A DNA stretch of 64,000 nt from Dokdonella sp. GTDB lineage: Bacteria; Pseudomonadota; Gammaproteobacteria; Xanthomonadales; Rhodanobacteraceae. The notes beneath the pieces are model-generated. The model was not told the origin of the DNA. It was given only the letters and a program-made list of their open reading frames with translations, and made no database searches. Location of the stretch: the NCBI RefSeq assembly GCF_019634775.1, contig NZ_JAHCAS010000001.1, positions 1,616,894 through 1,680,893 on the forward strand, given 5' to 3'. The translations under genes and the position numbers were made by a program. Positions 6,959 to 46,120 of this stretch are shown one piece after another. The first letter of the stretch is position 1. Each line of letters starts with the position of its first letter.

Positions 6959-9598
6959 TCACCCCACCGAATCGCCCGATCGGTGCGCCACCCAGGCGCC
7001 GATCAGGGCCGAAACGTAGGGAATCGCCTGGGCGGCGAGGATGCCGACCCAGAGCTTGCCTTCGGTGTACTGGATGCCAGTCGAGTGGATCATGCCGATG
7101 ATGCAGCCGGCCAGCGCGACCGCCATCAGCAGTTCCTCGCGCACCGACGAGAACGCGCTCGGCTTGCCGCTCAGACGCCGGCTCTTGGCCGTGCGCACGA
7201 ACTCGCCCTTCTTCTTCCAGAGGCCGAGGAAGATGCCGCGCGCGATGGCGTGCGACAGCCCCATGCTGGCGATCGAGGCCATGATCGTGTCGTACCAGCC
7301 GCAAGGCACGCGCTTGCGGTACAGCACGATGCCGAACACGGCCTTGCTGACGAAGAATCCGATGACCGGGATCAGGAACAGCTCCATCGGCAGGGTGAAC
7401 AGGGTCGGCCAGCCGACCATGCCGATCGTCCAGGCGATGGCCATCATCGTGAACACCAGGTGCAGCGCGTCCGCAAACCAGGAGAACCAGCCGGTCAGGA
7501 AGTGGAACTTCTGGCCGCGGCTGAGCGGGCTGTCCTTGCGCGTCATCCAGCCGAAGCGCGCCTTCATGATCTGCATCGCGCCGAAGGCCCAGCGATAGCG
7601 CTGTGACTTGTAGGCAGTGAAGTCGGCCGGGGTGAGACCCTTGCCCATCAGCTCGTCGACGTAGACGAGTTCATAACCCTGGTGCATCAGGCGCAGGCCG
7701 AGTTCGGCGTCCTCGCAGATCGTCCATTCCGACCACGCACCGGTGTCGACCAGCATGTGCCTGCGCACCATCGTCATCGTACCGTGCTGGATGATCGCGT
7801 TGCGTTCGTTGCGATGGTGCATGCCGATGCGGAAGAAGCCGTCGTACTCCCAGGCGGTCATGCGGCGGAAGCGGTTGTGCTCGAAGTCACGGTGCGCCTG
7901 CGGACACTGCACGACCGCGACCTTCGGGTCGGCGAAATACCCGGTCAGTGCGCCGAGCCAGTCCTTGCGTACCACGTAGTCGGCGTCGATCACGGCGACG
8001 ATTTCGGCGCGCGGGTCGGTCTGTTCGAGGCCGAAATTGAGCGCTCCGGCCTTGAAGCCGGGCCAGGGATCGAGGTGGAAGAAGCGGAAGCGCGGTCCGA
8101 GTTTCGCGCAGTATTCCTCGACCGGGCGCCACACATCCTCGCGCTTGGTGTTGTTGTCGATGACGAGAACCTCGAAGTTCGCGTAGTCGAGCGCGGCCAG
8201 CGAGTCGAGGGTCAGGATCACCATCTCCGGCGGCTCGTTGCAGCAGGCCAGGTGGATTGACACGAACGGCTGCGCTTCGGGCGGCGACGGTTCGAGCAGC
8301 CCGGCGTGTCTGATCCAGCGCGGCCGCCACAGCACTTCGGTGAATTCGAAGCCGTTGATCAGCAGGACGAGGATGATCGCGATCTGTGCCGGAAACAGCA
8401 GCAGCAGCATCGACCAGTCCAGTGGGCTGAGATAGAACGCCAGCGGCAGGCTGATCGACCACACGATGACCGAGGCCGAGAGCTGGATCAGGCCGAGGAA
8501 GAACACCAGGCCGGTCGCGTAGAAGCGGATGAAGTGGCGCGCGAACCAGAACATCGGCAACAGCGCGAGCAGGCAGGCGGCGATCGCCTTGATCTTCCAG
8601 GTCGGATCCTCGACGACCTTGCCGGTGAAGGAGAACTTCGGTTCGCGTGCGGCGTTGAACACGCCCCAGTAGGCCTCGGCGCGTCCGCCGCCGTGCGACT
8701 CCTTCCACGGCTGGTCGATCGCTTCCATCACGTAGTAGTCGATGCGCTCGCGCGCGGCGACGTTGAACCATTCGCGCAGGAACTGGGCCTCGTTCTCGAC
8801 TGACGGCTGCGCATAGGTCTTGCGGTCGCCGTTCGACGGCCAGCCGATTTCGCCGATCACGACCGGCTTGTCGGGGAACAGTTCCTTCAAGCGCTTGTAT
8901 TGGCCGAGGGTGAAGTTGATCGCGTCCTTGCGCGGGATGTGTTCCCAGTACGGCAGCAGGTGCACGCTGATGAAGTCGACGTGGCGGGCGAGCTCGGGAT
9001 TGCGCTCCCACACGAAGAATGGCTCGGCGGTCGACACCGGGATGTCGAGCTGCGCGCGCGCGCGGTCGATGTAGGCGATCAACTGTTCGACCGAAAGGTC
9101 GCCGCGCAGGATGGACTCGTTGCCGACCATCGCGCGGGTGATGTTGGCGTGTTTTCGCGACAGCGCGATCAGGCCCTCGATCTCCTCGTCGTTCTTCTGC
9201 AGGCGGCGGTCGAGCCAGGCGCCGGACATGACCTCCATGCCGTAGAAGTCGGCGATGCGCGGGATCTGCGGACTTTCGATCGACGAGTAGGTGCGCAGGC
9301 GCTTGGCATGCCTGGCCATCAAGCGGATGTCCGCGGCGAGTTCGCTCTCGCTCGGGAACAGGCCCTTGGTCGGATCCTGGTTGCGCTGGAACGCGCTGAA
9401 CGCGAAGCCCTCGACGCGGCCGGTCCAGTCGGCGATCTGCACGGGCCGGTTGAGGAAGGCCCACAGACCGTAGTTGAGTGCGGCGATCGCAAACGCGAAC
9501 AGCAGCGCACGCCAGGTCGATTTCGCGGAGGGATCGGCGGTCTTGCTGCTCAACGGAAACGCGCTGCGGTCGCAACCGCGGATGCGGCGCGGCAGCAT
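6959..9598 (-). CDS. ndvB: Bifunctional GH17 glucanase/transglycosylase - GT2 glycosyltransferase (NdvB-like beta-1,3-glucan synthase)
   Basis: 879 aa with an ATG at 9598. The N-terminal half has GH17-type Glu motifs (AMVGNESIL; VVIGEIGWPSNGD). The C-terminal half is a membrane GT2 (VSIHLACCNEPPEMV, VLVIDNN, AVIDADYV, QCPQAH, QRYRWAFG = QxxRW). As I recall, Pseudomonas aeruginosa NdvB has the same domain order and size. Confidence 0.75.
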   Translation of the reverse strand: MLPRRIRGCDRSAFPLSSKTADPSAKSTWRALLFAFAIAALNYGLWAFLNRPVQIADWTGRVEGFAFSAFQRNQDPTKGLFPSESELAADIRLMARHAKRLRTYSSIESPQIPRIADFYGMEVMSGAWLDRRLQKNDEEIEGLIALSRKHANITRAMVGNESILRGDLSVEQLIAYIDRARAQLDIPVSTAEPFFVWERNPELARHVDFISVHLLPYWEHIPRKDAINFTLGQYKRLKELFPDKPVVIGEIGWPSNGDRKTYAQPSVENEAQFLREWFNVAARERIDYYVMEAIDQPWKESHGGGRAEAYWGVFNAAREPKFSFTGKVVEDPTWKIKAIAACLLALLPMFWFARHFIRFYATGLVFFLGLIQLSASVIVWSISLPLAFYLSPLDWSMLLLLFPAQIAIILVLLINGFEFTEVLWRPRWIRHAGLLEPSPPEAQPFVSIHLACCNEPPEMVILTLDSLAALDYANFEVLVIDNNTKREDVWRPVEEYCAKLGPRFRFFHLDPWPGFKAGALNFGLEQTDPRAEIVAVIDADYVVRKDWLGALTGYFADPKVAVVQCPQAHRDFEHNRFRRMTAWEYDGFFRIGMHHRNERNAIIQHGTMTMVRRHMLVDTGAWSEWTICEDAELGLRLMHQGYELVYVDELMGKGLTPADFTAYKSQRYRWAFGAMQIMKARFGWMTRKDSPLSRGQKFHFLTGWFSWFADALHLVFTMMAIAWTIGMVGWPTLFTLPMELFLIPVIGFFVSKAVFGIVLYRKRVPCGWYDTIMASIASMGLSHAIARGIFLGLWKKKGEFVRTAKSRRLSGKPSAFSSVREELLMAVALAGCIIGMIHSTGIQYTEGKLWVGILAAQAIPYVSALIGAWVAHRSGDSVG

Positions 9599-9747
9599 AG
9601 CCGAAGCGTGCGCGGTCGCTCAATTCGCCCCCGGTTTGCGGAAAGTAGGCATCCGGGCGATGATGCGCGACCCTGCGTGCCCGCCACGCGTGAACACGAT
9701 TGTGGCCGCGCTGCGGTGGCCCGGCCGGGCGGTCCCTGGCTGCGAAC

Positions 9748-11613
9748 ATGCACAAGGAACCCATCATCGGCATGCAGGACGCATCGACCCTTGCTCGCCC
9801 GACTTCGTCGCTCGCCGCCCGTTTGCTCGCCTGGGGCGTGGCTGCCGTCGCCGCAGCCTGGATTCTGGCGACGCTGCTGGTGATCGTCGAGTTCGGCCTG
9901 CGCTATCCGGCCTTCGACCAGTTCAGGCTGTATCCGCTCTATCTCGGCCTGGCGTTCCCGGATTCGGCGATCCAACTCGAGAACGGCCATCGTCCCGTCC
10001 TGCCTGCGCTGGTGCGACTGCTCGAAGTCCAGTGGTTCGGCGCCAACCAGCAGCTGCAACTCGGTGTCGGCATTGCGCTGGTGCTGGCAACGGTCGCCCT
10101 GATCGGCCTCGCCGGACGGCGTGATGGTCGAACCGCCCTGCGTGGCTCGACCGCCTGGCTGCTCGCCGTCCTCGCGGTGCTTTGGCTCGGCAACGCGCGC
10201 ATGCTCATCCATGGCAACGAACTCGTCCACGCCTACCTGGTAACGAGCTTCACCGTGCTGAGCCTGTGGGCCGTGCATGCCGCGACACTCGGCCGGCCGC
10301 TGCGCTGGATGCTCGTGGCTGGCCTGTGCGCGTCTGGCGCGGCTTTCAGTTTCGGCTCCGGCATGGCGGCGTTTGTCGCTCTGTTCTTCACCGCTGCCGC
10401 CGGCCGCGTGGCGTGGCGGGCATGGCTCGCGCCATTGGCCCTGTTCCTGGCCGCGATCGGGCTCTACCTGGCCGGCATGCCGGGCGACTCGGGGGTGCGC
10501 AACTCCCTGTTGCTGTCACCGCTGGACAACGTCGTCGTCGGCCTGCGCTGGTTGTCGGCCCCGTGGATGCATGCCTGGCTCGGCTATGCCAATCCGGCGA
10601 TGTTCCCGTTCGTACCGACGCCGGCCGAACCGGCGAACCTCGTCGAAGCTGCGCTGCGCGGCAGTGCCGGCTTCGTGCATTCCATGCTCGGTACGCACGC
10701 GTTTCGGATCGAGGGCATCGTGATCGGTGCCGCCGCTGTGGCGGCGTGGCTGGCCTGCCTGTGGCATGTGCGCCGGCACGAGGTTTGGCGCGGGCGCCTG
10801 GTCGCCTTCGGCCTGGCCACGTTCGGCCTCGCCGTCGGCGCGACGATCTGCCTGGCCAGGCTGGCCCATTTCAAGACCAGCCCCGGCGACGTGCTGGCCG
10901 AGCGTTACCTGCCGTGGAGCTGCCTGTTCTGGCTCGGACTTGCGCTGTATGCGCTGGCAGCGCCACGTCGACCATCGCCGCGCCGCGATGTGATCGCCGC
11001 CATGTTCGCCGTCGCGCTGGCCGTGATGCTGTATCCGAGCCATCTCTGGTGGGTCGGCTGGGCCGCCGCCGTGAATCGCATCAACAACGCCTCGGCCGTG
11101 GCGGCGCAGATGGGGATATGGGACCCCGAACGTTTCCCCGACGGCCCTGACGCGCGCAAGGCCGACGTGTTGCGCTCGCTCGAACTGATGCGCGAGCGCC
11201 GGCTGTCGATGTTCGGCGAGCCCGGTTACGCACTGTGGTCGTCGCAGTGGCGGGAGCCGGCGTTGCTGCTGCCGCCGCAGTCGGGGCTGTGGCTGCACGC
11301 GATGTCGGAGTTCCGCAACGACGACGGTCGCCGCGTCGTGCGCATCGAAGGCGTCCTGCCGCGGTCGGGTCCGTTGCCGCAGGACGCGGTGATCGCCCTT
11401 GTCGCTGCCGGCGGCGGCTTGCGCGGCATGGCCAAGCCGAGCTTCTTCGAACCTGACGAAACGCTTCCACGACGGATCACCGGCCTGCGCCCGGGTTTCG
11501 ATGGCTACCTCATCGATCCGCAACCGGGCGAGACCTTCGAGCTGCTGATCATCGCAGCCGATGCGCAGACTGCGCTCGTGCGCTTCCCGATTCCGCAGGG
11601 TGCGATACCCTGA
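9748..11613 (+). CDS. Polytopic integral membrane protein, family not recognised
   Basis: ORF 9700..11613, with TTG at 9700 and ATGs at 9748 and 9772, so the start is uncertain. It has many hydrophobic segments (LAARLLAWGVAAVAAAWILATLLVIV, WLLAVLAVLWLG, MLVAGLCASGAAFSFGSGMAAFVALFF ...) followed by a ~170-aa soluble tail. It is divergent from the ndvB-like gene. Codon third positions are GC-rich. Confidence 0.7.
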   Translation: MHKEPIIGMQDASTLARPTSSLAARLLAWGVAAVAAAWILATLLVIVEFGLRYPAFDQFRLYPLYLGLAFPDSAIQLENGHRPVLPALVRLLEVQWFGANQQLQLGVGIALVLATVALIGLAGRRDGRTALRGSTAWLLAVLAVLWLGNARMLIHGNELVHAYLVTSFTVLSLWAVHAATLGRPLRWMLVAGLCASGAAFSFGSGMAAFVALFFTAAAGRVAWRAWLAPLALFLAAIGLYLAGMPGDSGVRNSLLLSPLDNVVVGLRWLSAPWMHAWLGYANPAMFPFVPTPAEPANLVEAALRGSAGFVHSMLGTHAFRIEGIVIGAAAVAAWLACLWHVRRHEVWRGRLVAFGLATFGLAVGATICLARLAHFKTSPGDVLAERYLPWSCLFWLGLALYALAAPRRPSPRRDVIAAMFAVALAVMLYPSHLWWVGWAAAVNRINNASAVAAQMGIWDPERFPDGPDARKADVLRSLELMRERRLSMFGEPGYALWSSQWREPALLLPPQSGLWLHAMSEFRNDDGRRVVRIEGVLPRSGPLPQDAVIALVAAGGGLRGMAKPSFFEPDETLPRRITGLRPGFDGYLIDPQPGETFELLIIAADAQTALVRFPIPQGAIP

Positions 11614-14600: not shown

Positions 14601-15403
14601 TGACTCTCGCACGCACCTTTCTCGACCGTGCCCTCGTCGCCGCGCACACCGCCGCCGATGCCGCCGAGGTCGGCATCCGCGCGCACTACCGCGCGCGTGA
14701 CTTTGCCGTCGAGACCAAGGCCGATGCCACGCCGGTGACCGAAGCCGACCGCGAGGCCGAGGCGGCGATCAAGCGCGTGCTGCGCGCGGCGTTTCCCGGC
14801 CATGCCTACTACGGCGAGGAGGAAGGCCGCGAAGGCGACAGCGACTTTCTCTGGCTGATCGACCCGATCGACGGCACGAAGTCGTTCGTGCGTGGCTATC
14901 CGTTCTTCTCGACCCAGATCGCGCTGATGCACGAAGGCGAACTCGTGCTCGGCGTGTCGGCGGCCGGCGAATACGGCGAACGCACCTGGGCGACGCGTGG
15001 CGGTGGCGCTTTCCTCGGCACGAACGGGCGCGACGGGCGCGCGATCCGAGTATCCGGTGCGCGCGAACTCGGTCCGGCGACAGCGATCTCGACCGGCAAC
15101 CTCAAGTCGCTGGCCTGCGATCCGCGGCGCTGGAACGCACTCGCCGGCCTCGTCGCACGCAGCGGTCGCATCCGCGGCTACGGCGATTTCCTGCACTACC
15201 ACCTGCTCGCCCGCGGCGCGATCGACCTCGTCATCGAATCCGACCTCAACATCCTCGACGTAGCCCCGCTCGTCGTCGTCGTGCGCGAAGCCGGCGGCGT
15301 GTTTACCGCCCTCGATGGCGGCAAGGTCGATCTTTCACTCTCGAGTGCGCTTGCGGGGCCGCCGGGGTTGCATGGTTTGGCGCTCGAGGCGCTCGCCGCG
15401 TAG
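14600..15403 (+). CDS. Inositol monophosphatase family protein (SuhB/HisN-like)
   Basis: 267 aa with the motifs ..TEADREAE.. and WLIDPIDGTKSF, which are IMPase metal-binding signatures. Its ATG overlaps the gspN stop (TGATG). Confidence 0.85.
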   Translation: MTLARTFLDRALVAAHTAADAAEVGIRAHYRARDFAVETKADATPVTEADREAEAAIKRVLRAAFPGHAYYGEEEGREGDSDFLWLIDPIDGTKSFVRGYPFFSTQIALMHEGELVLGVSAAGEYGERTWATRGGGAFLGTNGRDGRAIRVSGARELGPATAISTGNLKSLACDPRRWNALAGLVARSGRIRGYGDFLHYHLLARGAIDLVIESDLNILDVAPLVVVVREAGGVFTALDGGKVDLSLSSALAGPPGLHGLALEALAA

Positions 15404-15470
15404 GAGCCCCTTCAGGGGCGATGCTTCTTCTTTGCATCGCGCCGAAAAACATCGCCCTTGAAGGGGCTCC
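15403..15470. repeat. REP-like hairpin (21-nt arms, 20/21 complementary)
   Basis: GGAGCCCCTTCAGGGGCGATG (15403-15423) pairs with CATCGCCCTTGAAGGGGCTCC (15450-15470). The single mismatch is G:T. Each arm has an internal CCCCT/AGGGG palindrome. It lies just after the IMPase stop and could act as a terminator or insulator. Confidence 0.7.
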
Positions 15471-15575
15471 TGCGGGAGGCTGTGGCTTCCCTCCAACCCC
15501 GCATGCGATGCATCTTCGTTGCATGCCACCACGACGGGCCGCGCCGCGGTTCGCATTTCCAGGGAAGCCTTGCCG

Positions 15576-18530
15576 ATGAGCCTGCCTTCGATCCTTTCCG
15601 TGCGGGTGCGTGCGTTGTTGTTGACGCTCCTCTTCGTAGCCTCCGTGCCGCTGCATGCCGTATCGATCGTCGCGCCACCGCCGCCGCGGGTCGAGCTGCG
15701 CGACGGGGGTGAGCCGGTCGCGCTGCGTGACCTCGACGTGCGCGCCGAAATCGTCGGCGGACTCGCGCGCACGCGCGTCGAGATGGTGTTCGTCAATCCG
15801 AACGCGCGCGTGCTCGAAGGCGAACTCGTGTTCCCGCTGCTGGATGGTCAGGCGGTCGACGGTTTCGCGCTCGACATCGACGGCGTGCTGCGCGATGCCG
15901 TGCCGGTCGAGAAGGCCAGAGGCAAGCAGGTGTTCGAGGACACGATCCGCCGGCGCGTCGATCCGGCCCTGCTCGAAACGGCCGGCGGCAACGTGTTCCG
16001 CCTGCGTGTGTATCCGTTGCCGGCCAAGGGCACGCGCCGCGTGGTGGTCTGGATCAGCGAGGCGCTGGAAGGCCGCGACGGCCAGTGGTCGTACCGTTAT
16101 CCGCTCGCCCAGGCCAACAAGCTGGCTTCGTTCGCGCTCGAGATCGACGTGGCAAACGCGGCGCAGAAGCCGGTGCTGACGCGTGCCGACGGCCTCGACG
16201 GTGCGCTGAAACTCGCAGCGGTCGGCACGCGCTACCGCGCCACGGTCCGCCGCAATGATTTCGTCGCGCGCGGCTGGGTCGAACTCGCCGTGCCTGATGG
16301 TGGTGCCGACACACCGGCGCCGGCGTTGGTCGAACGTTGGAACGGCGCACGTTACCTGTATGCCGATCTGCCGCTCGCACTGCCGCGCCTTGCACGCAGG
16401 CCGGCGTCGCGTGTCGGTCTGGTGTGGGACAGCTCCGCCTCCGCACGACAGCGCGACCACGCGGCCGAGTTCAGCCTGCTCGATGCGTATTTCAGGGAGA
16501 TGCGCAATGGTGAGGTTGCGCTCGTGCGCGTGCGCGACGTGGTCGAGGATGGTGGCCGCTACACGATCCGCGACGGCGACTGGCAGGCCCTCAAGCGTGC
16601 CCTGCAGGAAACCGTCTACGACGGTGCGACCAACCTCGCCGCCTGGAAGATCGACGCCACGCTCGACGAAATCCTCGTGTTCACCGACGGCCACGCCAAC
16701 TACGGCACCGGCGTGCTGCCGGCCGGCCTCGACCAAGCCAAGGCACGCATCATCCCGGTCAACGCCTCGGCCTCGTCGGATCGTGCCGTGCTGCGCCGGC
16801 TCGCGCGGGATGGCGTCGTGGTCGATCTCACGCGCGGCCTCGAGGCGGCAAGCGGCGCGCTGCTGACGACGACGGCGACGATCCTCGCGATCGAGGCGGC
16901 CGGCGATGCCGACATCGTCGCCGATGCCGAAGCCTGGTCGCGCGGTCGTCTGCGCCTGCACGGCCGCATTACCGGCGAACCGCCGCGCGAGTTGCGCGTG
17001 CGCGTGCGTGAAGCGATCCGCGGGGAGCGCGTGGTGAACATTCCGCTGGCTGCGGCGGTCGAGGCGGAGCCGGGATCGGTACCGTTCGCGGCGCGACTGT
17101 GGGCGCGCCAGCGCATCGAACGCCTCGAAGGCGAACGCGGCCTGCATCGCGCCACGATCCGCCGCCTCGGCCTCGAGTTCGGCCTGGTCACACGCGAGAC
17201 CTCGCTGATCGTGCTCGACACCGTGGCCGACTACGCGCGCCACGGCATCGAGCCGCCGGCGCCGCTGCGCGGCGAATATCTCGCCCTGCGCGAGCGCGAG
17301 CAGGTGCGCGAGCGCAAGGACAGGGATGCCCACCTCGACACGATCGCCGCGCAGTATGCCGACAAGCTCGCATGGTGGAATCGCGACTTCCAGAAGACGA
17401 AGCCGCCGCTGCAGAAGGTTGCCGGGGAAGCGTATCGCCAGAGTCACGCGGTCCTCGCCGAGGCTGCGCCGATGGCCGCTGGCGCACCGCCACCGCCGCC
17501 TTCGCCGCCACCGTCCGCCGCGCCGGCGCGTGACGAGCAACGGCTGGAATCCGTGCAGGTCACGGGCAGCCGCATGCGTCGCGCCGATGTGGCCGCTGCC
17601 GCGCCCGGACAACCCGCGCCGGTCGAGGCCACGATCGCGTTGAAGAAATGGACGCCCGACGCGCCGTACATCGCGCGCCTGCGCGAAGCCGATGCCAAGG
17701 CGTTGTACGCGACCTATCTGGACGAGCGTGTGGACTGGCAGGACAGCAGCGCCTTCTACCTCGACGTCGCCGACCTGCTGTTCGAGCGCAAGCTCGATGC
17801 GCTGGCCCTGCGCGTGCTGTCGAATCTTGCCGAACTCGAGCTCGAGAACCGCCAGGTGCTGCGCATCCTCGGTTATCGCCTGCTGCAGGCGGACCAGGCC
17901 GCACTGGCCGTGCCGCTGTTCGAGGAGGTGCGTGAGCTGGCGCCGTTCGAGCCGCAGTCGTTCCGCGACCTTGGCCTGGCCTACGCCGCCGCCGGCACAA
18001 CGCAGAAGGCCGCCGACGCGCTGTACGAAGTCGCCGCGCGGCCGTGGGATCCGCGTTTCGCCGAAGTCGGCCTGATCGCGCTGACCGAGCTCAACGCGTT
18101 GATCGCGACGAAGGCCGGCATCGATACCGCGCGTTACGACGCGCGCCTGCTGCGCAACCTGCCGGTCGACCTGCGCGTGGTGCTGAGCTGGGACGCCGAC
18201 AACTCCGACATGGACCTCTGGGTCACCGACCCGCACGGCGAGCGCGCCTTCTACGGCCATCGCCTGACCCACCAGGGTGGACGCATGTCGGCCGACCTGA
18301 CCGCCGGCTACGGTCCCGAGGAGTTCATGCTCAAGCGCGCCATCCCGGGCACCTACAGGGTCGAAGTGAACTACTACGGCAACCGCCAGCAGGTCGTTTC
18401 GGGCACGGTCTCGCTGCGCCTCGCCTTCTTCACCGGCTTCGGCCGCCCCGGACAGCAGGAGCAGTCGGTGATCCTGCGTCTGCGCGACCAGCGCGAAACG
18501 GTGCTGGTCGGCGAGTTCGAGGTCAAATAG
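15576..18530 (+). CDS. Secreted VIT - von Willebrand A - TPR-like - DUF2135 multidomain protein
   Basis: ORF 15519..18530, with ATG 15576 and AGGGAAG 8 nt upstream. Signal peptide: MSLPSILSVRVRALLLTLLFVASVPLHA. The N-terminus is VIT-like (LRDLDVRAEIVGGLARTRVEMVFVNPN..GELVFPL). The vWA domain has a MIDAS start (VGLVWDSSASA ... VFTDGHANYG). A Pro-rich linker follows, and the C-terminus reads LRVVLSWDADNSDMDLWVTDPHGERAFYGH...YYGNRQQ, which I recall as DUF2135. Confidence 0.8.
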   Translation: MSLPSILSVRVRALLLTLLFVASVPLHAVSIVAPPPPRVELRDGGEPVALRDLDVRAEIVGGLARTRVEMVFVNPNARVLEGELVFPLLDGQAVDGFALDIDGVLRDAVPVEKARGKQVFEDTIRRRVDPALLETAGGNVFRLRVYPLPAKGTRRVVVWISEALEGRDGQWSYRYPLAQANKLASFALEIDVANAAQKPVLTRADGLDGALKLAAVGTRYRATVRRNDFVARGWVELAVPDGGADTPAPALVERWNGARYLYADLPLALPRLARRPASRVGLVWDSSASARQRDHAAEFSLLDAYFREMRNGEVALVRVRDVVEDGGRYTIRDGDWQALKRALQETVYDGATNLAAWKIDATLDEILVFTDGHANYGTGVLPAGLDQAKARIIPVNASASSDRAVLRRLARDGVVVDLTRGLEAASGALLTTTATILAIEAAGDADIVADAEAWSRGRLRLHGRITGEPPRELRVRVREAIRGERVVNIPLAAAVEAEPGSVPFAARLWARQRIERLEGERGLHRATIRRLGLEFGLVTRETSLIVLDTVADYARHGIEPPAPLRGEYLALREREQVRERKDRDAHLDTIAAQYADKLAWWNRDFQKTKPPLQKVAGEAYRQSHAVLAEAAPMAAGAPPPPPSPPPSAAPARDEQRLESVQVTGSRMRRADVAAAAPGQPAPVEATIALKKWTPDAPYIARLREADAKALYATYLDERVDWQDSSAFYLDVADLLFERKLDALALRVLSNLAELELENRQVLRILGYRLLQADQAALAVPLFEEVRELAPFEPQSFRDLGLAYAAAGTTQKAADALYEVAARPWDPRFAEVGLIALTELNALIATKAGIDTARYDARLLRNLPVDLRVVLSWDADNSDMDLWVTDPHGERAFYGHRLTHQGGRMSADLTAGYGPEEFMLKRAIPGTYRVEVNYYGNRQQVVSGTVSLRLAFFTGFGRPGQQEQSVILRLRDQRETVLVGEFEVK

Positions 18531-18579
18531 CCGCCCCATGCCGGTAAGATGCGTCGCATCTCGACCACGGAACGCAGGC

Positions 18580-19131
18580 ATGGCCGACCCGGTGAAGGCT
18601 CCGCTGAGCTACTCGGACATCCCCGAGCGCAACACGGCCGACAATGTGTTGCGCACGGCCCAGCAGCACCACGTGCAGTTGTCGGCGATGGCCGACACCA
18701 AGGCCAACATCATCATCACCGTGTCGTCGATCGTGCTGACTCTGTCGCTCGGTCGCGTCAACGACCCCGAGCTGCGCACCGGCGTGCTGATCCTCGCCGG
18801 TTTCACCTTGGTCGCCCTGCTGCTGGCGATCCTCGCCGTGCTGCCGAAGTACCGGCCGATCCGTCTCACGGACGAAACCCTGCCGCCGCATTTCAACCTG
18901 CTGTTCTTCGGCCATTTCGCCGAACTCTCGCGCGAGCGCTATCTGATCGAGATGAACCGCGTGCTGATGCCGGGCGGGGTGCCGTATGCGACCTGGGTGG
19001 CCGACATCTATTCGCTCGGCACCTATCTGCGCCGCCACAAGTACCGCTACCTTCGCTACAGCTACCTGTTCTTTCTCGCCGGTTTCGTGCTGGCCTGTCT
19101 CGAACAGGGTTGGCGTTTGCTCGCCCATTGA
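18580..19131 (+). CDS. Small 3-TM membrane protein, DUF5706 / PycTM (Pycsar-effector-like) resemblance
   Basis: ORF 18538..19131; the start may be ATG 18580 or 18538. The segment AQQHHVQLSAMADTKANIIITVSSIVLTLSL, plus the hydrophobic stretches GVLILAGFTLVALLLAILAVL and YLFFLAGFVLACL, resembles the DUF5706/PycTM family as I remember it. This is not verified by a profile search. Confidence 0.6.
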   Translation: MADPVKAPLSYSDIPERNTADNVLRTAQQHHVQLSAMADTKANIIITVSSIVLTLSLGRVNDPELRTGVLILAGFTLVALLLAILAVLPKYRPIRLTDETLPPHFNLLFFGHFAELSRERYLIEMNRVLMPGGVPYATWVADIYSLGTYLRRHKYRYLRYSYLFFLAGFVLACLEQGWRLLAH

Positions 19132-19193
19132 GCAAACCCCGGCGACTTCCTCGTCGCGTTGCATCGCCATCGTTCCGAAGTGGAGGGACCATC

Positions 19194-22100
19194 ATGCGTG
19201 CATGGCTGCTGATCTCGATCCTGTTGCTGGCCGTCACGGTGGAGGCCGCCGAACCGGTCGTGCCGGCACCGCTCGAACCCTGGCGCGCGTGGGTTCTGAA
19301 CGGCCATGAACATCGTGCCTGTCCGCTGATCGCCGGCCGCAACGGGGCGCAGCGCGACGATTACCTCTGCCAATGGCCCGGCGTGCTCGAACTGGCTGCG
19401 GATGCGAGCGGCGTCGCCATCACGCAACGCTGGCAGCTGGCCGCGGAAGGTTGGGTGCCGCTGCCCGGCAATGCGCAGCACTGGCCGCAGCGGGTCACGG
19501 TCGGTGGGCGGCCTGCGGTCGTGGTCGACCGCCAGGGACCGATGCTCTGGCTTGGCGCCGGCAGCCACGAGCTGCGCGCGCGCATCGACTGGGATGAGCG
19601 TCCGCAGTCGCTCGACGTACCCGAGGTGATCGCCTCGATCGCGCTCAGCGTCGACGGCAGGCCGGTGTTGCCGGTGCAGCGTACGGGCAAGGCCCTGACG
19701 CTCGGCCGCGCGCAGGGTGGCGCGGTCGAGGCCGACAGCGTCGATCTGACCGTGTTCCGCAGGTTCACCGACAACGTGCCGGGCGAGCTGACCACGCGCG
19801 TGTCGATCGATGCTTCCGGGCAGGCGCGCGAAGAACGCTTCGGTCCGGCGTTGCCGGAAGGTTTCGTGCCGGTCGCGCTGTCCAGCACGCGTTGGCCCGC
19901 GCGACTGGACGAAGACGGCATGCTGCGCGTGCAGGTGCAGCCGGGGTCGAACGAAATCAGCCTGATCGCGCGCGCGATCAGGCCGGTCGAACGTCTGGTC
20001 GCGCGCGTGCCGGAACAGTGGGCGAGCCAGGAGGTGTGGAGTTACCAGGCGATGCCCTCGCTGCGCGTGACCGGAGTCAGCGGCGCCGTGCAGGTCGATC
20101 CGCGTCAGGCCAACGTACCCAACGACTGGCAGGCATTGCCGGCATTCGCGCTCGATGATGGCGGCACCTTGGCAATCGAGGTGCGCTCGCGCGGACTCGA
20201 TCCGGCCGAGGCGAACCGGCTTGTCCTGGTGCGCGAAGCCTGGCTCGACTTCTCCGGCGCCGGCTGGTTCGCGCGCGACCGTGTGAGCGGAACCATGCAG
20301 AGCGGCTGGCGCTTCGACGCGGCCGCGCCATATGCCTTGCAGCGCGCGGGCAGCGGTGTCGAGGGCGACGACGAATCGCTGCTGGTCACGCGCGGGCAGG
20401 GCGAAGGCCTGACCGGCACCGAGTGGCGCACCCCGCAGGTCGATCTGCGTGCCAGTCTGCGCATCGATGCCCCGGCCGGCACACTGCCGGTGACCGGCTG
20501 GCAGCAGGTGTTCGACCAGGTCACCACGACCCTGCACCTGCCGTACGGTCATCGCCTCGTCGCCGCGCCGGGCAGCGATCGCGCCGTCGGCAGCTGGCTG
20601 TCGCGCTGGACCCTGCTCGATGCTTTCCTTGCCGCAATCATCGCGCTGCTCGCCGCGCGCCTGTTCGGCCTCGTCGGCGGCGTGCTCGCTGCGATGTACC
20701 TGCTGCTTGCCTACCAGGAGCCTGGTGCGCCGGTGTGGAGCCTGCTGCTCGTGCTCGCATTCGGGCTCGTCGTGCGTGCGCTGCCGACTGGCCTGCGCCT
20801 CGCGCGGGTGCTCGGCGCGCTGCGCATTGCCGCACTGATCGTGTTCGCCTTCATCGCCTTGCCCTTCGCCGCGCAGCAGGTGCGCATGGCCTTGTATCCG
20901 CAACTGGAAGGACGATTCGGCTTCGGGCCAGGGCCTGCGCTCGCCAATCTCGCCATGCCACAGACGCCGATGCCGGCACCGGCGATACCCATGATCGCTG
21001 TCGAACAGCCGATGCCGACCGAACCCGACGTCGAGAGTGCGGGCAAGGTCGGCAGTTCACGCGTGCAGGACACCGCCACACGCGAGCAGGTCACGGTCAC
21101 CGGCTCGCGCATCCGCCGCGCCGACCAGATGGCCAAGTACAGCCAGAACACCGTCGTGCAGACCGGTGGGGGCGAGCCGGGCTGGCGGCTCGGCAACAGC
21201 TACACGCTGTCGTGGAGCGGGCCGGTGTTGCCGGCGCAGGAAGTGCGCCTCGTCGTCGCGCCGCCATGGCTGGTGCGCAGCCTGCGCATCGTGCTGGCGG
21301 TGCTGGTCGGCCTGCTCGGCTGGCGCCTGCTGGCTGGTATCGCCCGGTCGCGTCGCGGCGTGGGCACGGTCACGAGTGCATCCGCGCTGCTGCTGGTCGG
21401 CCTGCTCGTCGCAGGCTCGCCGGTACAGGCGGAGGACTATCCGCCCGAACACCTGCTCGACCAGTTGCGCGCTCGCCTGCTTGAAGCACCACCGTGCGCG
21501 CCGGCCTGCGCGAGTCTCGCGCGTGCCGAGGTGTCGGCGCGCGGCGAGGAGATTCGCGTCGTACTCGAAGCGCATGTTGCGGCAGCGCGCGTGGCCTTGC
21601 CGGTGCCGCTCGACGAGCGTGCTGCACCCTTGCGCGCGGCCTACATCGACGGCAGCGCAAACCCCAGTCTCGTCCGCTTCGGCGGCAAGCCGTGGATCGC
21701 GCTGGAGCGCGGCGTGCATCAGGTCGAACTCGTGTACGCCGCGGTCGGTGACAAGGTCGATCTCGCCTTTGCACTGCCGCCTCGCCATGTCGTCTACCGC
21801 GGCGATCGCTGGCAGGCCAGTGGTCTCGCCGATGGTCGCCTGCTCGCCGACACGTTGACGATCGCGCGTGCGCGCGATGCCGATGCGGCGCGTCCGACGG
21901 ATGGCGCGCAGAGCTTCCCGGCCTGGGTGCGCGTGGTGCGCGACATCAGCTTCGACCTCGACTGGAGCGTGGCCACGCAGGTGCGGCGTGTAGCGCCGCG
22001 TGAAGGCGGTTTCACCGTCGATGTGCCGATCCTCGCTGGCGAACACCTCGGTGATGCGCGCCTGCGCGTGCGCGACGGCAAGGTCGCGGTCTCGCTGCCG

Positions 22101-23312
22101 GGCAATGCGCGCGAGATGGCCTGGCACTCGACGCTCGACAAGGCCGATACGCTGAGCCTGACCGCGCCATCGCTCGGTGAGCGCGCCGAGGTCTGGCAGT
22201 TTGCGGTCAGTCCGACCTGGCACGTCGAGTTCAGTGGCGTGCCGGAGTCGGCCATGGCCGTCACCGATGCCGCCGACTATCGTCGCTTCGAGTTCCATCC
22301 ATTGCCCGGTGAAACGCTGACCCTGAAGGTGCGCCGGCCCGAACCTGCCGCCGGGGCCACGCGCGCCATCGACAAGGTCGACCTCACCAGCGAGTTCGGC
22401 AAGCGCGCCAGCACGCACACCCTGCGGCTGCAGGTGCGCGCAAGCCAGGGTGGCGACCAGGTGATCGACCTGCCGGCAGGCTTCGACGTGCTCGCGGTCA
22501 GCGTCGATGGTGTCGCCGTCAATGCGCGGCCGATCGACCAGCGCTTGAGCGTGCCGGTACGTCCAGGTGCGCAGACCATCGAGGTTCGCCTGCGCGGCAC
22601 CACCGAACCGGGCCTGCGCGCGCACACGCCGGCGATTTCGCTCGGCCTGCCGGCGGCGAACATCGACTTGCGCGCACAACTGCCGCGCGACCGCTGGCTG
22701 CTTGCCGCATCAGGTCCAGCGGTCGGACCGGCCGTGCTGTTCTGGGGCGAACTCGCGGTGATGATCGTCGTCGCCGTGCTGCTGTCGCGCTGGCGGCGTT
22801 CGCCGCTGAAGCTGCACCAGTGGCTGCTGCTCGGCCTCGGCTTCTCGACATTCTCGTGGATCGCGCTGGCTTTCGTCGTCGCCTGGTTGTTTGCCTTCGA
22901 GGCGCGCAGGCTTGGCGCGGCGGCGAAGAACTGGGTGTTCAACCTCGGCCAACTCGGCCTCGTTGCGCTCACCGTGATCGCACTCGTGTGCCTGTTCGCG
23001 AGCATCCACAACGGCCTGCTCGGCGAACCCGACATGGTCGTCAGCGGCTACGACTCCTACGCACGCAGCCTGCACTGGTTCGCCGATCGCAGCGGCGACG
23101 TGTTGCCGGTGGCCAGCGTCGTCTCGCTGCCGCTGTGGGTCTACAACATCGTCATGCTGGTGTGGGCGCTGTGGCTGGCCTGGGCCGTGGTCGGCTGGCT
23201 GCGCAGCGGCTTCAAGGCCTGGTCGGAAGGCGGCTACTGGCGTCGCTGGAGCGAGCCGAAGCCGATCGAAACCGCCGAAGTGCCGCCGCCGCCACCCGTG
23301 CCGGGGGGTTGA
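19194..23312 (+). CDS. Large (1372 aa) uncharacterised envelope protein with two [signal-like - ~480-500 aa domain - TM bundle] modules
   Basis: Lies within ORF 18549..23312. The start is placed at ATG 19194 (GGAGGGA 6 nt upstream), giving [23 protein letters not shown] clusters lie at about aa 525-620 and about aa 1180-1340. An internal signal-like segment sits at aa 720-746. No family was recognised. Confidence 0.8.
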
Positions 23313-23317: not shown

Positions 23318-24169
23318 GTGGCGACGATCCGCGATCTCGTCGCCGCGGCTGCATCGTCCGGTGAGATCGATGCCCGCCACGAGGCCGAGCTCCTGCTCGG
23401 CCACGTGCTCGGGCGTCCGCGCGCGTGGCTGTATGCACACGCACAGGACGGGGTCGATGTCGACGCGCAGCGTCGTTTCGAAAGTCTCGTGGAGGCGCGC
23501 CGTGGTGGTCGGCCCGTCGCCTACCTGACCGGCACGCGCGGCTTCTGGACACTCGATCTGCTCGTCACGCCGGACGTGCTGATCCCGCGCGCCGAAACCG
23601 AGCGCCTGGTCGAACTCGCACTCGAACGCATTCCCGTCGACAAGGACTGCGCCGTCGCCGACCTCGGCACCGGCTCCGGCGCGATCGCACTCGCCATCGC
23701 CAGCGAACGACCGCGCGCGCGCATCGTCGCCACCGACGCCAGCCCCGCCGCACTGGCCGTCGCGCGCGCCAACGCCGAACGCCTCGGCCTCGCCAACGTC
23801 AGCTTTGCCGGCGGCGACTGGTGCGCCGCACTCGGTGCGCAACGCTTCGACGTCATCGTCTCGAACCCACCCTACATCGCCGCCGCCGACCCGCACCTCG
23901 GCCAGGGCGACTTGCGCTTCGAACCCGTATCCGCACTCGCCTCCGGCAACGACGGCCTCGACGCCATCCGCAGCATTGCCGCCCAGGCACGCGCCCACCT
24001 CGAAGCCGGCGGCTGGCTGCTCGTCGAGCATGGGTTCGAGCAAGGTGAAGTGGTGCGTGCCCTGTTCAGCACAAACGCCTACACCGAGATCGCCACCGCC
24101 CGCGACCTCGAACAACGCGAACGCGTCACCCTCGCCCGCACCCCGCTGCGACCCTTGCGGATGTCATGA
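23318..24169 (+). CDS. prmC: Release factor glutamine N5-methyltransferase PrmC (HemK)
   Basis: In frame within ORF 22820..24169, starting at GTG 23318 ([11 protein letters not shown]..). Motifs: [21 protein letters not shown] (SAM binding) and VSNPPYI (NPPY). Confidence 0.9.
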
Positions 24170-24263
24170 CGCCGTTGCGGGGTTGATCAGAGCAGCCCTA
24201 ACATGCGCGGTTTCGGGGCCGGGGGATGCTCCGAGCACTGGGACGAATGCAGGGGGAGAGCCG

Positions 24264-27200
24264 ATGTCGGGGAAATGGATTGCGGGCATCCTTGCGTGCT
24301 TGATCGGCGCAGGTGCGGCGCAGGCGGCATTGCCGATGCGCGGAGTGAATCTGGCAGGCGCGGAGTTCGGCGAGGGCAATCTGCCCGGCCAGTACGGCGT
24401 CGACTACACGTTTCCCACCGTGCAGGAAGTGGACTACTTCCATGCCAAGGGCATGACCACGATCCGCCTCGGGTTTCGCTGGGAACGCCTGCAACTGACG
24501 CTCGGCGGTCCGTTGGATGCAACCTATCTGGCCGGGCTGGATACCGTGGTGAACCATGCCGCCAGCCTCGGCATGAAGGTCATCATCAACCCGCACAACT
24601 ATGCGCGCTATCACGGCAACCTGGTCGGCTCGCCGCAGGTGCCGCATGCGCAGTTCGGCGATTTCTGGGCGAAGCTCGCGCAGCACTATGCCAACGTTCC
24701 ACAGGCGGTGTTCGGCCTGGTCAACGAACCGCATACCATGCCGACCGAACAATGGCTGGCGGCGGCCAACGCCGCCATTGCGGCGATTCGTGCGACCGGC
24801 TCCACACACCTGATCCTGGTGCCGGGCAATGCCTGGACCGGCGCACATGCCTGGTCGCAGAACTGGTACGGCACGCCAAATGCCCAGGTGATGACGGGTG
24901 TGGTCGATCCAGGCAACAACTTCGCCTTCGAGCTGCACCAGTACTTCGATGCCGACTACAGCGGCAGTTCTTCGACTTGCCAAAGTGCGGCCGGCACCGG
25001 CGCCAACCAGTTGCAGGGTGTCACCCAATGGCTGCGCACGCATGGCTACAAGGGTTTTCTTGCCGAATTGGCCGGCGCCAACAACATCCCTTGCCGCAAC
25101 GCGGTGGAAAGTGCGCTGGATCACCTCCAAGCCAATGCCGATGTCTGGCTCGGTTGGGCGTGGTGGGCGGCCGGGCCGTGGTGGGGCGAGTACATGCTGA
25201 CGCTGGAGCCGACCAACAACTTCACCGTCGATCGTCCGCAGATGGCGTGGCTGGCGCCCTATCTTGCCCCGACCGGCAACGCGGCGCTGATCGTCTACGA
25301 CGACTCCTTGCAGAATGGCTTCGCCGACTGGTCCTGGGGCGGTGGCAGCAACTTCGCCAATACTGCGCCCGTGCACGGCGGCACCCATTCGATTGCCCTG
25401 ACCGGCAACAACTACAACGCCATTTCGATGACGCGCGAAACCGGCGCACTTTCCACGGCCAATTTTCCGGTGCTGCGTTTCTGGATCCATGGCGGCACCA
25501 GCGGCGGACAGGCATTGGCCTTGATCCTGCAGAAGAATTGCGGCACCGGCACCTGCGTGGTTGCCGCACAAGCCAATCTCAACGCTTTCATTGCCGGCGG
25601 TGCGCCAGTGGCGAACGCCTGGCGCGAAGTGACGGTGCCGATCACGCAGGCGCCGCTGGCCTACAACGGTGACTACGACCGCATCGACATCCAGAGCGCA
25701 TTGGCCGGGACACAGCCGGCCGTGTATTTCGATGACGTCTCGCTGCAATCCAGTGGTGGGAGCGGCAACGACCTGGTGTTCGCCGACGGTTTCGATGGTG
25801 CGCCAGCGGCCGTGAACGGCTTGGTGCAGGAGCGTGATGTCACGGTGGCCTCGATGCTGAGCGATCGTTTCACCTGGCGTGATTCGTCGAACAAGCCACG
25901 CGTCGCCGTACTCGCACACAATGATGGCCAGTTCGGTCCGGTCGCACCCGGCGGTTCGCAGAATCGCGGCGGTGCCCTGCGCGAGTTCCGCTACCAGATG
26001 CCGGATGACTCCACCCGCGTGGCCGGGGTCACCAACTACGGCAATGCAGGACAGGGCGGCTTCGGCTACGTCGTCTCGCATTCGGCCTGGCCGAGCAATG
26101 GTGGCGGCTGCAATGGCAACGACTCACCGCTCGGCTATGGCTTCCCCGGCGCGTTCCAGCGCGTTTTCGAGGGTCGCCACCACGCAATCTTCCGCTTCAC
26201 CCAGAGCTACCCGCGCCGCTGCAGTCCCGCGCCCGGCGGCGCATCCACGTCGGTGCCTGTCACCATCGACTGGATGTTTTCCACCGGTCGCGACAACCCG
26301 CTGTGGGCCATCACCTACGACATGAGCGCGCTGCCGGCCAACTTCCTGTTCGATGATTCACGCGCGCCCTATGGCGAGCTTGCGATCGACGGTGTGGGTG
26401 CCAGCAACATCAGTGGTGTTGCCTGGGGCGATCGCTGGCAGTTCACCAGCACCACGGCACCTCTCACCTTGAACAGCCAGTGGACGTGGAACACGCCCAA
26501 TACCGTGCCCTACGTGAAGCTCTGGGTGGATTCGACGAACGCGACCATGGGTCTGGTGCAGAGCCAGACCATGACGCAGCAGGATGCCGGGGCGCGCAAC
26601 CAGTTCTATCACGACATCACCGCGTTCTGGAACAAGACCAGCGCCCAGGGCAATGCCGGCGGCAGTTACGTGATGCCCTGGCAGGACAGTTGGCCCTACC
26701 AGGCCAATGCCTATTCGATCGGTCCGTCCACACCCAACGGCAATGCGCGCCTGACCTGGGGCACCTCGTACGGCTTCCTCGGCCAGACCAGCTACAGCGT
26801 CCACGATGGCGTCGTGGCCACGGCACCCGGCTATCCGCGCAAGAGCTACGCGCTCTACGTCGTGCTCGGCGCACACAGCACCAGCCCGATCGAGACCCAG
26901 CGCAGCGAGATCGAAACCCGCCAGACCCTGACCTTGAGCACCAGCGTCGGCAGTGTCGCCAGCAGCGGCCCGGCCGGCCCCGGCCGCAGCGACACGATGG
27001 CCTACCAGCCGGCAGGCAATGATCCGGTGCATGGCGCGTTGACCTTCGTCGCCAGCGGAAACGCGCTCGATGCGAACATCGCGGTGGGTTCCGGCACGCT
27101 CCGGAATCCGCTGATCATCGTGCGCGGTGCAAGCGCCTATCCCGCTTCCGTACGGCTCAATGGCGCGCTGCTCACGGCCGATGCCGACTACTTTCCTTCG

Positions 27201-27284
27201 CTGCGCGCTGGCGCGAACGAACTGTGGTTGACGCTCAACCGCAACCTTGCCGGCGCCAACAACCGCTTGCAGCTGCAGCCCTGA
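24264..27284 (+). CDS. Secreted glycoside hydrolase family 5 (endoglucanase-like) with long uncharacterised C-terminal region
   Basis: Lies within ORF 23805..27284, with ATG 24264 after AGGGGGAGAG. Signal peptide: MSGKWIAGILACLIGAGAAQA. GH5 core: RGVNLAGAEFG, GLVNEPH (acid/base Glu), FLAELAG, WLGWAWWAAGPWW. This is followed by a CBM-like segment of about 150 aa and about 550 aa of unknown function. Confidence 0.8.
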   Translation: MSGKWIAGILACLIGAGAAQAALPMRGVNLAGAEFGEGNLPGQYGVDYTFPTVQEVDYFHAKGMTTIRLGFRWERLQLTLGGPLDATYLAGLDTVVNHAASLGMKVIINPHNYARYHGNLVGSPQVPHAQFGDFWAKLAQHYANVPQAVFGLVNEPHTMPTEQWLAAANAAIAAIRATGSTHLILVPGNAWTGAHAWSQNWYGTPNAQVMTGVVDPGNNFAFELHQYFDADYSGSSSTCQSAAGTGANQLQGVTQWLRTHGYKGFLAELAGANNIPCRNAVESALDHLQANADVWLGWAWWAAGPWWGEYMLTLEPTNNFTVDRPQMAWLAPYLAPTGNAALIVYDDSLQNGFADWSWGGGSNFANTAPVHGGTHSIALTGNNYNAISMTRETGALSTANFPVLRFWIHGGTSGGQALALILQKNCGTGTCVVAAQANLNAFIAGGAPVANAWREVTVPITQAPLAYNGDYDRIDIQSALAGTQPAVYFDDVSLQSSGGSGNDLVFADGFDGAPAAVNGLVQERDVTVASMLSDRFTWRDSSNKPRVAVLAHNDGQFGPVAPGGSQNRGGALREFRYQMPDDSTRVAGVTNYGNAGQGGFGYVVSHSAWPSNGGGCNGNDSPLGYGFPGAFQRVFEGRHHAIFRFTQSYPRRCSPAPGGASTSVPVTIDWMFSTGRDNPLWAITYDMSALPANFLFDDSRAPYGELAIDGVGASNISGVAWGDRWQFTSTTAPLTLNSQWTWNTPNTVPYVKLWVDSTNATMGLVQSQTMTQQDAGARNQFYHDITAFWNKTSAQGNAGGSYVMPWQDSWPYQANAYSIGPSTPNGNARLTWGTSYGFLGQTSYSVHDGVVATAPGYPRKSYALYVVLGAHSTSPIETQRSEIETRQTLTLSTSVGSVASSGPAGPGRSDTMAYQPAGNDPVHGALTFVASGNALDANIAVGSGTLRNPLIIVRGASAYPASVRLNGALLTADADYFPSLRAGANELWLTLNRNLAGANNRLQLQP

Positions 27285-42974: not shown

Positions 42975-43000
42975 TGTGGGAGCGGCTTCAGCCGGGAACC
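42975..43000. repeat. Single REP element (TGTGGGAGCGGCTTCAGCCGGGAACC)
   Basis: Has the same GCGGCT-TC-AGCCG core as the REP pair at 44170-44242. It overlaps the stop codon of the 42988..44082 gene. Confidence 0.6.
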
Positions 43001-44082: not shown

Positions 44083-44169
44083 CGGGCAGGCACTCGTGGT
44101 CGTGACGGGGCATCCAAACCGATCGGCCGGCGTGCTGCCGTGACGCAGGTGGCGATCCTTTGGAGCGTT

Positions 44170-44242
44170 GATCGCGGCTGAAGCCGCTCCTACAGAAGCT
44201 GGTCCTGTGAGAGACCCTGTAGGAGCGGCTTCAGCCGCGATC
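44170..44242. repeat. REP inverted pair (perfect 26-bp arms, 21-bp spacer)
   Basis: GATCGCGGCTGAAGCCGCTCCTACAG (44170-44195) is the exact reverse complement of CTGTAGGAGCGGCTTCAGCCGCGATC (44217-44242). It lies between the divergent secreted-protein gene and recQ. Confidence 0.9.

Positions 44243-44305: not shown

Positions 44306-46120
<1,815 letters not shown>

Follow-up and report, generated by a model that had tools for sequence, protein, structure and literature searches.

Pycsar systems are defined by a PycC cyclase that is paired with an effector (PMC11224242), and the literature on one such effector, PycTM, describes canonical systems in which it is linked to the cyclase. A second group of described proteins, comprising the eukaryotic inter-alpha-trypsin inhibitor heavy chains (ITIH4), PARP4 and the bacterial sortase- or exosortase-sorted families TIGR03788 and TIGR04477, is exported and carries an N-terminal VIT domain that is followed by the complete metal-ion-dependent adhesion site (MIDAS) signature of a von Willebrand factor A (vWA) domain. 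Escherichia coli YfaP, which bears a DUF2135 domain, is encoded in the yfaS (alpha-2-macroglobulin-like) gene cluster. YfaP itself is functionally uncharacterised (PMC12356324), and a literature search with 'DUF2135' returned no papers. Proteins with features of each of these are encoded, together with a giant membrane protein that has no name, by three consecutive genes (here genes 1, 2 and 3) in a 64,000-nt stretch of a Dokdonella sp. contig (NZ_JAHCAS010000001.1), which at its full length is called the window. The original prediction took the three as parts of one system, either an envelope-assembly device or a system of the conflict or abortive-infection type. Comparison with ∼90 related loci instead makes it probable that the 'trio' is three independent, uncharacterised envelope genes that happen to adjoin in a few Dokdonella-like genomes.

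All three genes lie on the + strand. Gene 1 (15576–18530) encodes 984 amino acids (aa), and an identical 984-aa protein is present in the database; gene 2 (18580–19131) encodes 183 aa, a start that is favoured over an ATG at 18538 because most orthologues are likewise 183 aa long; and gene 3 (19194–23312), which has a GGAGGG Shine-Dalgarno sequence, encodes 1372 aa. The intergenic gaps are 49 nt between genes 1 and 2 and 62 nt between genes 2 and 3, and the release-factor glutamine methyltransferase gene prmC (23318–24169, +; Pfam PrmC_N and MTS) begins with a GTG 5 nt past the gene 3 stop, all as originally described. On the upstream flank are the genes for proteins L and N of a type II secretion system (gspL and gspN) and then an inositol monophosphatase (suhB-like) gene that ends at 15403; with prmC, a glycoside hydrolase family 5 (GH5) cellulase gene and dxs further downstream, these are the neighbours of the trio in the window. 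Each of the three genes is already known as an orthologue of a database family ('VIT domain-containing protein', 'Pycsar system effector family protein' and 'hypothetical protein'), and we agree with the original prediction that all three are without a tested function.

Evidence on whether these genes form a unit comes from the loci of gene 3 in other species. The 80 best loci, out of 498 species-level genomes with relatives of gene 3, were compared; they belong mostly to Rhodanobacteraceae (Dokdonella, Rudaea, Tahibacter and Pseudolysobacter), and the remaining few to Ahniellaceae and to Azoarcus/Accumulibacter-type, alphaproteobacterial and acidobacterial metagenome-assembled genomes. The locus search used a 9-sequence alignment of gene 3, as a 25-sequence alignment had no conserved stretch. 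Neighbours were scored by tblastn wherever there was enough flank, which was the case at 56 loci for gene 1 and at 70 loci each for gene 2 and prmC. Gene 1 was found upstream of gene 3 at only 6 of the 56 loci, and also at the locus in the relative L001. In the closest relative with full flanks (L003, whose gene 3 is 63% identical) the order is gspL–gspN–suhB–(other gene)–gene 2–gene 3–prmC, collinear with the window and lacking gene 1. Gene 1 is thus not conserved as a neighbour, and the proposal of a single three-gene envelope device does not survive for it. In L003 the gene 1 slot is filled (7656–8354) by another inositol-monophosphatase-like gene, a divergent one whose product shares 32% identity with the suhB-like protein of the window.

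Gene 1 also has a history of its own elsewhere. Homologues with the same architecture are numerous (720 matches), for instance in Lysobacter capsici and in Betaproteobacteria, and in the three contexts inspected they adjoin either prfB-lysS or an unknown gene and an extracytoplasmic function (ECF) sigma factor gene, never gene 2 or gene 3. These observations are consistent with an insertion of gene 1 downstream of suhB and ahead of gene 2 that took place in a single Dokdonella sublineage, where it would be an accessory gene for an independent exported protein. In L. capsici (L082, 8001–12408) the homologue lies just upstream of prfB, which encodes release factor 2; that prmC, whose product methylates release factors, is near gene 1 in the window is taken as coincidence. 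In the two betaproteobacterial loci (L083, 8001–13779, and L084, 8001–13736) the homologue is followed by a gene for an unknown protein of ∼260 aa, the ECF sigma factor gene and a gene for an unknown protein of ∼380 aa, and it is possible that these three genes, which the window does not contain, form a conserved signalling neighbourhood of the VIT/YfaP_C family.

The junctions on either side of gene 3's start and stop tell a different story from that of gene 1. At 45 of the 70 testable loci gene 2 immediately precedes gene 3 in the same orientation, at a median distance of ∼137 nt; at 6 more 2–3 kb intervene, and prmC follows gene 3 directly at 59 of 70. The neighbourhood is thus kept for gene 2–gene 3–prmC within Rhodanobacteraceae, but not for gene 1 and not in distant lineages. 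Beyond the family, in betaproteobacterial loci and in relatives at 31–34% identity, gene 3 is solitary amid unrelated and often opposite-strand housekeeping genes (thiolase, parC, murJ, lgt and hrpA, or a DEAD-box helicase gene in Thalassotalea sp. PS06); the solitary relatives include that of Thalassotalea sp. PS06, that of a hydrothermal-vent gammaproteobacterium and those on several metagenomic contigs. Gene 1, gene 2 and prmC were undetectable at these distant loci even at an E value of 0.01. At loci that lack gene 2, raw six-frame clustering of open reading frames (ORFs) was swamped by shadow ORFs owing to the high GC content, and it was replaced by ORFs filtered for third-position GC content together with the called genes of the contigs.

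A true functional pair, in which the giant membrane protein would, at least in Rhodanobacteraceae, have the PycTM-fold protein of gene 2 as its gate or as one of its subunits, might be expected to leave much the same record within one family, and it would accord with the shared strand, the 62-nt gap of the window that holds no recognisable terminator, and the inner-membrane character of both products. However, gene 3 is without gene 2 in all of the betaproteobacterial, alteromonad, vent and other distant loci examined. In Rudaea unrelated genes, including an apparent glycerate kinase gene, stand between genes 2 and 3, and in Tahibacter aquaticus gene 3 and prmC remain together on one scaffold but the gene 2 orthologue (73% identical) is found on a different one, behind an M1 peptidase gene. 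The adjacency of genes 2 and 3 is no better kept than that of gene 3 and prmC, which has an unrelated, cytoplasmic function and so serves as a control for what conserved adjacency means. Given that the gene 2–gene 3 adjacency is found only within one family and is no stronger than the one with prmC, inherited gene order is the simpler explanation, and a functional pair is considered unlikely. Gene 2–gene 3–prmC would then be a part of the core genome that Rhodanobacteraceae have long passed on vertically. That gene 3 and prmC are themselves functionally linked was considered and rejected, as this adjacency vanishes outside the family.

Gene 2 is the member of the trio that most invites a reading in terms of defence. 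As originally predicted, it encodes a protein with three hydrophobic segments that belongs to the PycTM/DUF5706 type: residues 63–168 match PycTM PF18967 with an E value of 1.5e-21 (77 bits, with a cut-off of 27.2), and in PADLOC the profile for PycTM is matched at 7e-12 over positions 6–146 of 160. It also matches PADLOC CBASS 2TM effector profiles, and the listed orthologues, 70–92% identical, bear the NCBI name 'Pycsar system effector family protein'. In these matches, in size and in its multi-helix membrane layout gene 2 resembles the PycTM of Pycsar systems. On that basis it could be the membrane-disrupting effector of an abortive-infection system, Pycsar-like or otherwise, whose sensor would be gene 1 or gene 3 instead of a cyclase. 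Yet a Pycsar system requires PycC (PMC11224242), and no class III nucleotidyl cyclase was found among the 35 ORFs of the 64-kb window that were scanned with Pfam (genes 1–3, the flanking genes and the larger ORFs) or in the related loci L001 and L086, in agreement with the original observation that no cyclase is nearby. Neither gene 1 nor gene 3 has a PADLOC match, no mobile-element genes lie beside the locus, and the sole clear defence locus of the window, a Type I restriction-modification system, is ∼27 kb away.

The evolutionary behaviour of gene 2 points in the same direction. Defence genes are typically patchy and island-like in distribution; gene 2 instead occupies a fixed position in the core genome across Rhodanobacteraceae, in the order (pepN)–gene 2–gene 3–prmC–...–dxs, and the neighbourhood from gene 2 to dxs recurs in other genera. 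Over 50 loci gene 2 has a median identity of 71%, compared with 62.5% for prmC and 52% for gene 3, and a conservation above that of prmC is the opposite of the rapid turnover expected for a defence effector. A conflict or abortive-infection role for this locus, the second option of the original prediction, is accordingly so improbable that we give it hardly any credence. In Rhodanobacteraceae gene 2 belongs to the conserved core and evolves slowly; its product is a full-length member of the PF18967 family but does not belong to a Pycsar system. Unlike the PycTM of such systems gene 2 is a highly conserved single-copy gene at a fixed position that has no partner PycC, and the NCBI name over-reads it. 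Its product would be a small housekeeping membrane protein with a PycTM fold, and its closeness to gene 3 is most likely a matter of inherited gene order.

The domains of gene 1 can be assigned with varying firmness. Most of those named in the original prediction were recovered: a hydrophobic, signal-like segment at the N-terminus, a VIT domain (15723–16043, +; residues 50–156; PF08487, E 6.4e-22), a Pro-rich linker further on, and a DUF2135 domain near the end. In the PDB the family profile matched ITIH4 over its VIT region (E 2.5e-7). Between the VIT domain and the linker is a vWA-like region (16407–16955, +) with the MIDAS signature D285-S-S287-A-S289, T346 and D371-G372; in 30 homologues that are 44–79% identical, D285, S287, S289, D371 and G372 are invariant and T346 is present in at least 90%. 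Pfam VWA_2 gave only an E value of 0.047 (14.8 bits against a cut-off of 27), and the vWA assignment, plausible from the conserved signature, is unproven. Similarly, the TPR repeats (17868–18044, +; residues 765–823) matched TPR_16 below the cut-off with both the whole protein (E 8e-4) and a fragment (E 1.7e-4), and the family profile matched the TPR region of MamA in the PDB (E 5e-6). The DUF2135 domain, named YfaP_C in the precomputed annotation (18339–18482, +; residues 922–969; PF09906, E 4.7e-15), scores 55.8 bits against a cut-off of 22 over the full 48-position model.

In having an N-terminal VIT domain and then a complete MIDAS signature, and in being exported, gene 1 resembles the VIT-vWA proteins. 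It differs from them in the additional TPR repeats and YfaP_C domain and in the lack of a C-terminal sorting signal, none being found at an end that consists of the YfaP_C block (...GEFEVK) without a hydrophobic tail. Its scores against the sortase and exosortase VIT families TIGR03788, TIGR04477 and TIGR04286 also fall far under the NCBIfam cut-offs (54 against 551 bits, 19 against 250 bits). With E. coli YfaP it has in common only the YfaP_C block of ∼48 C-terminal residues, and no alpha-2-macroglobulin or other yfa gene was present among the ORFs scanned in the window. We infer from the MIDAS residues that the protein may bind, in a metal-dependent manner, a ligand in the periplasm or at the cell surface.

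A vWA and TPR protein together with a beta-sandwich membrane protein recalls BatA-E, and the envelope-device option can be put in these terms: gene 1, a vWA/TPR sensor or adhesin, would join genes 2 and 3 in one machine loosely like the Bat vWA/TPR/BatD aerotolerance system. Such a machine would fit three co-directional, closely spaced genes, two of which, genes 1 and 3, share a TonB-box-like motif in this genome (see below). Set against it are the rarity of gene 1 at gene 3 loci, its absence from the collinear L003 and the other neighbours of its homologues elsewhere. In addition, no MoxR ATPase or DUF58 gene is among the neighbours, gene 3 and its homologues have no BatD match, and no Pfam BatD or vWA family was matched above threshold. 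We consider this machine very improbable, and three separate genes remain the preferred interpretation.

Gene 3 could not be named by the original prediction and cannot be named now: searches against Pfam, NCBIfam, PADLOC and PDB sequences gave no match, a sequence search of the PDB with gene 2 was likewise of no use, and 25 diverse homologues of gene 3 (to 31% identity) gave only scattered chance matches to Pfam at an E value of 1. The family is nevertheless large, with 3157 clusters at 50% identity (E <=1e-3; 1600 at E <=1e-30), and nearly all of its members are 1330–1420 aa long. The suspected double-module structure proved to be a true internal duplication. Alignment of module 1 with module 2 by hhalign gave a probability of 97.7% and an E value of 1.7e-12 over 473 columns, extending into the first membrane helices, and the relationship is invisible to BLASTP, with which the two halves gave nothing significant.

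The anatomy of the protein was read from hydropathy and from AlphaFold2 (AF2) models made in two parts, residues 1–700 and residues 681–1372, with predicted local distance difference test (pLDDT) values of 74.7 and 78.4, respectively. Hydropathy and the AF2 layout place a signal peptide at the start. The module 1 ectodomain (19263–20597, +; residues 24–468, with the all-beta part at ∼60–465) is predicted to be all-beta, with several beta-sandwich domains at pLDDT values mostly of 80–95, and leads into a transmembrane bundle (20601–20894, +; residues 470–567) that hydropathy supports and in which AF2 places helices at 474–506, 514–529 and 534–567. The inter-module linker (20895–21263, +; residues 568–690) is Pro-rich and disordered (pLDDT <50 at 576–653). 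After the disordered part and a short beta element, a helical hairpin (21267–21431, +; residues 692–746), seen by hydropathy and AF2, is predicted to lead back into the periplasm, and the second of its helices is similar to a signal anchor, with RSRR, a hydrophobic stretch and then VQA followed by ED. The module 2 ectodomain (21432–22730, +; residues 747–1179) is again all-beta in the AF2 model, at ∼773–1173, and the C-terminal transmembrane bundle (22731–23228, +; residues 1180–1345) has helices with pLDDT values of 83–92. This last bundle contains long invariant runs, including LLGxPDM, and the conserved charged residues E1186, R1238, D1280 and D1298, and is likely to be the functional core.

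Each ectodomain opens with an invariant Cys pair (C43/C59 and C768/C772). Because of these pairs and the signal-like leaders both ectodomains are predicted to be periplasmic, and it would follow that the linker is periplasmic too and that the first bundle has an even number of spans. Four spans would fit, given that the long helix 474–506 aligns with two separate spans of module 2. Gene 3 would therefore encode a self-sufficient giant inner-membrane protein of two tandem homologous modules, each of which would project a beta-sandwich stalk of ∼440 residues into the periplasm from a helix bundle.

The fold class of these stalks recalls that of other proteins. With Foldseek the top match of both modules was the ribophorin I/Ost1 subunit of eukaryotic oligosaccharyltransferase (E 1.5e-8 for module 1 and 2.5e-8 to 4e-8 for module 2, probability 1.0, with TM-scores of only 0.14–0.28 and root-mean-square deviations of 17–27 Å), and behind it came the legs of integrin alpha and, from M1 aminopeptidases, the N-terminal beta-sandwich. 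Ribophorin I/Ost1, like the gene 3 modules, has tandem beta-sandwich domains, lumenal in its case and periplasmic here, that are followed by a membrane helix. However, gene 3 has two modules with multi-helix bundles and no STT3-like catalytic partner, and neither it nor the 25 homologues match the Ribophorin I profile (PF04597) at an E value of 1. The likeness seen in the models is one of fold class, a string of beta-sandwiches on a membrane anchor, and not one of family membership or function. By analogy with ribophorin I and the integrin legs, gene 3 may serve constitutively as a scaffold in the periplasm, or hold envelope components there, and not be a toxin. In Tahibacter (L032, 2232–5234) gene 2 is preceded by a pepN-like M1 aminopeptidase gene, and in Rudaea (L085, 4264–6948) such a gene lies upstream of it; that Foldseek also likens the gene 3 ectodomains to part of M1 aminopeptidases is probably a coincidence.

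A feature that had not been suspected is a short motif of the pattern L(D/E)xIxVTGSRI(K/R)Rx(D/E) in the linkers of genes 1 and 3. In gene 1 it reads LESVQVTGSRMRRAD (17544–17588, +) and stands just past a PPPPPSPPPS stretch; in gene 3 it lies at 21084–21125 (+), inside the disordered Pro-rich segment. These two were the only matches of V[TS]GS[RKL][IML] in six frames of the window. The motif type is, we presume, the TonB box of receptors of the Xanthomonas/Caulobacter type. The N-terminus of a TonB-dependent receptor in L082 (1392–1750; Plug and barrel domains confirmed) reads IDKITVTGSRIKRAEIEG, and that of a second receptor, in L044 (near position 156), is likewise nearly identical to the linker motif. 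In the gene 3 homologue of L065 the likeness to receptors extends into the start of the plug (VVVTGSRIKRTDMETAQPVF).

Whether the motif has been kept was followed in the homologues with the pattern [LMIV][EDQ]x[IVLM]x[VI][TS]G[ST]. Among close homologues of gene 3 it occurs in 69 of 120 and among distant ones in 21 of 144, in every case within the linker; it is missing from betaproteobacterial homologues, and in gene 1 homologues it is sporadic (10 of 120) and in others often degenerate. Gene 3 shares with the receptors an almost identical motif in a disordered, Pro-rich and probably periplasmic segment. It differs from them in its inner-membrane location, in the absence of the motif from many family members and in the lack of a plug and a beta-barrel: genes 1 and 3 gave no Pfam match to Plug or TonB_dep_Rec, and the gene 3 models are beta-sandwiches and helix bundles. 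Group B colicins also carry TonB boxes in disordered regions, to which the gene 3 linker can be likened. In many Xanthomonadales the periplasmic linker of gene 3 may dock TonB by means of this TonB-box-like strand. The motif, a resemblance in sequence, is a lead and not a finding, and that the family acquired a genuine TonB box in Xanthomonadales, and is an endogenous inner-membrane or periplasmic client of TonB, seems to us quite unlikely.

Several points weigh against the interpretation of three independent genes and of gene 3 as a scaffold. No terminator-like or sigma-70-like site was found between the three genes by scan, which is weak evidence at 67–70% GC, and with the shared direction and the short gaps it means that co-transcription may well occur in this genome. 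The occurrence of VxVTGSRxRRAD in both gene 1 and gene 3 hints at a common partner, and the frequency with which gene 2 adjoins gene 3 within the family is, as said, also what a real pair would produce. The contexts of gene 1 beyond Dokdonella that were inspected number only three. For gene 3, the membrane topology was reasoned by hand, the structural matches superpose poorly, and the function is drawn by analogy from fold class only.

The hairpin that precedes the trio also deserves comment, as it had been labelled a repetitive extragenic palindromic (REP) element. A strong hairpin does exist at 15399–15474 (+), with 28-nt arms that are 89% complementary and a predicted RNA folding energy of −59.4 kcal/mol (z −7.8). 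However, it is a single copy in the 64-kb window and has no copy in 86 related loci, and within this sequence the REP label finds no support. Rfam gave one sub-threshold microRNA match at the hairpin, which is taken as chance. The hairpin is located by the stop of the suhB-like gene and probably marks the end of the upstream transcription unit of type II secretion genes and suhB. At the other end of the locus, no GGQ motif of release factors 1 and 2 is present in any frame of the window; prfA is therefore not nearby, and prmC is detached from its usual partner as first noted.

The GC content of the window (∼67–70%) produces many long shadow ORFs, and these could mislead gene calling. One such artefact of 1092 aa (15303–18581, −) is antisense to gene 1. 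Another open frame (18549–23312, +) crosses gene 2 in a different frame (18549–19193) before it becomes gene 3. A 627-aa antisense ORF at 24198–26081 (−) was rejected as a gene, its translation being Arg/Gly-rich nonsense; the true gene there is the + strand GH5 cellulase gene. This gene (24264–27284, +) lies between prmC and dxs, and its secreted product, of ∼1000 aa, has the GH5 cellulase domain (E 2e-50) at its N-terminus. Its local GC content of 63–65%, against ∼69% in the surrounding 12–24 kb, and the presence of a different gene at that slot in L001 suggest that it is a recent insertion.

Other genes of the window lie farther from the trio. Upstream of the type II secretion cluster are two more large envelope genes, for a 1420-aa TamB-family protein (859–5121, −) and for an 879-aa protein with glycosyl hydrolase 17-like and glycosyltransferase 2 domains (6959–9598, −). 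Two ORFs, at 9700–11613 (+) and 42988–44328 (−), have coding-like third-position GC and no Pfam match at E <=1e-5; the former (637 aa) immediately precedes gspL. The Type I restriction-modification locus spans 50837–58736 (+), with HsdM at ∼50933–52504 and HsdR at ∼55323–58736, and the ORF between them (52501–53808) may be the specificity gene.

The main value of these observations is corrective. A match to PycTM/DUF5706 does not by itself indicate a defence system, and here close, co-directional spacing made three unrelated genes resemble a machine encoded by an operon. What is left in place of that machine includes a family, that of gene 3, which comprises more than 3000 clusters at 50% identity in ∼500 species and has a clear duplicated architecture, yet no Pfam model and no name. 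The TonB-box-like strand in this unexpected host offers a testable starting point for a dark protein of the envelope. If the motif does bind TonB, the proteins that carry it, located in the inner membrane and periplasm and unlike receptors of the outer membrane, would be mechanically coupled to the TonB-ExbBD motor, or would compete for it, and would constitute a new class of endogenous TonB client.

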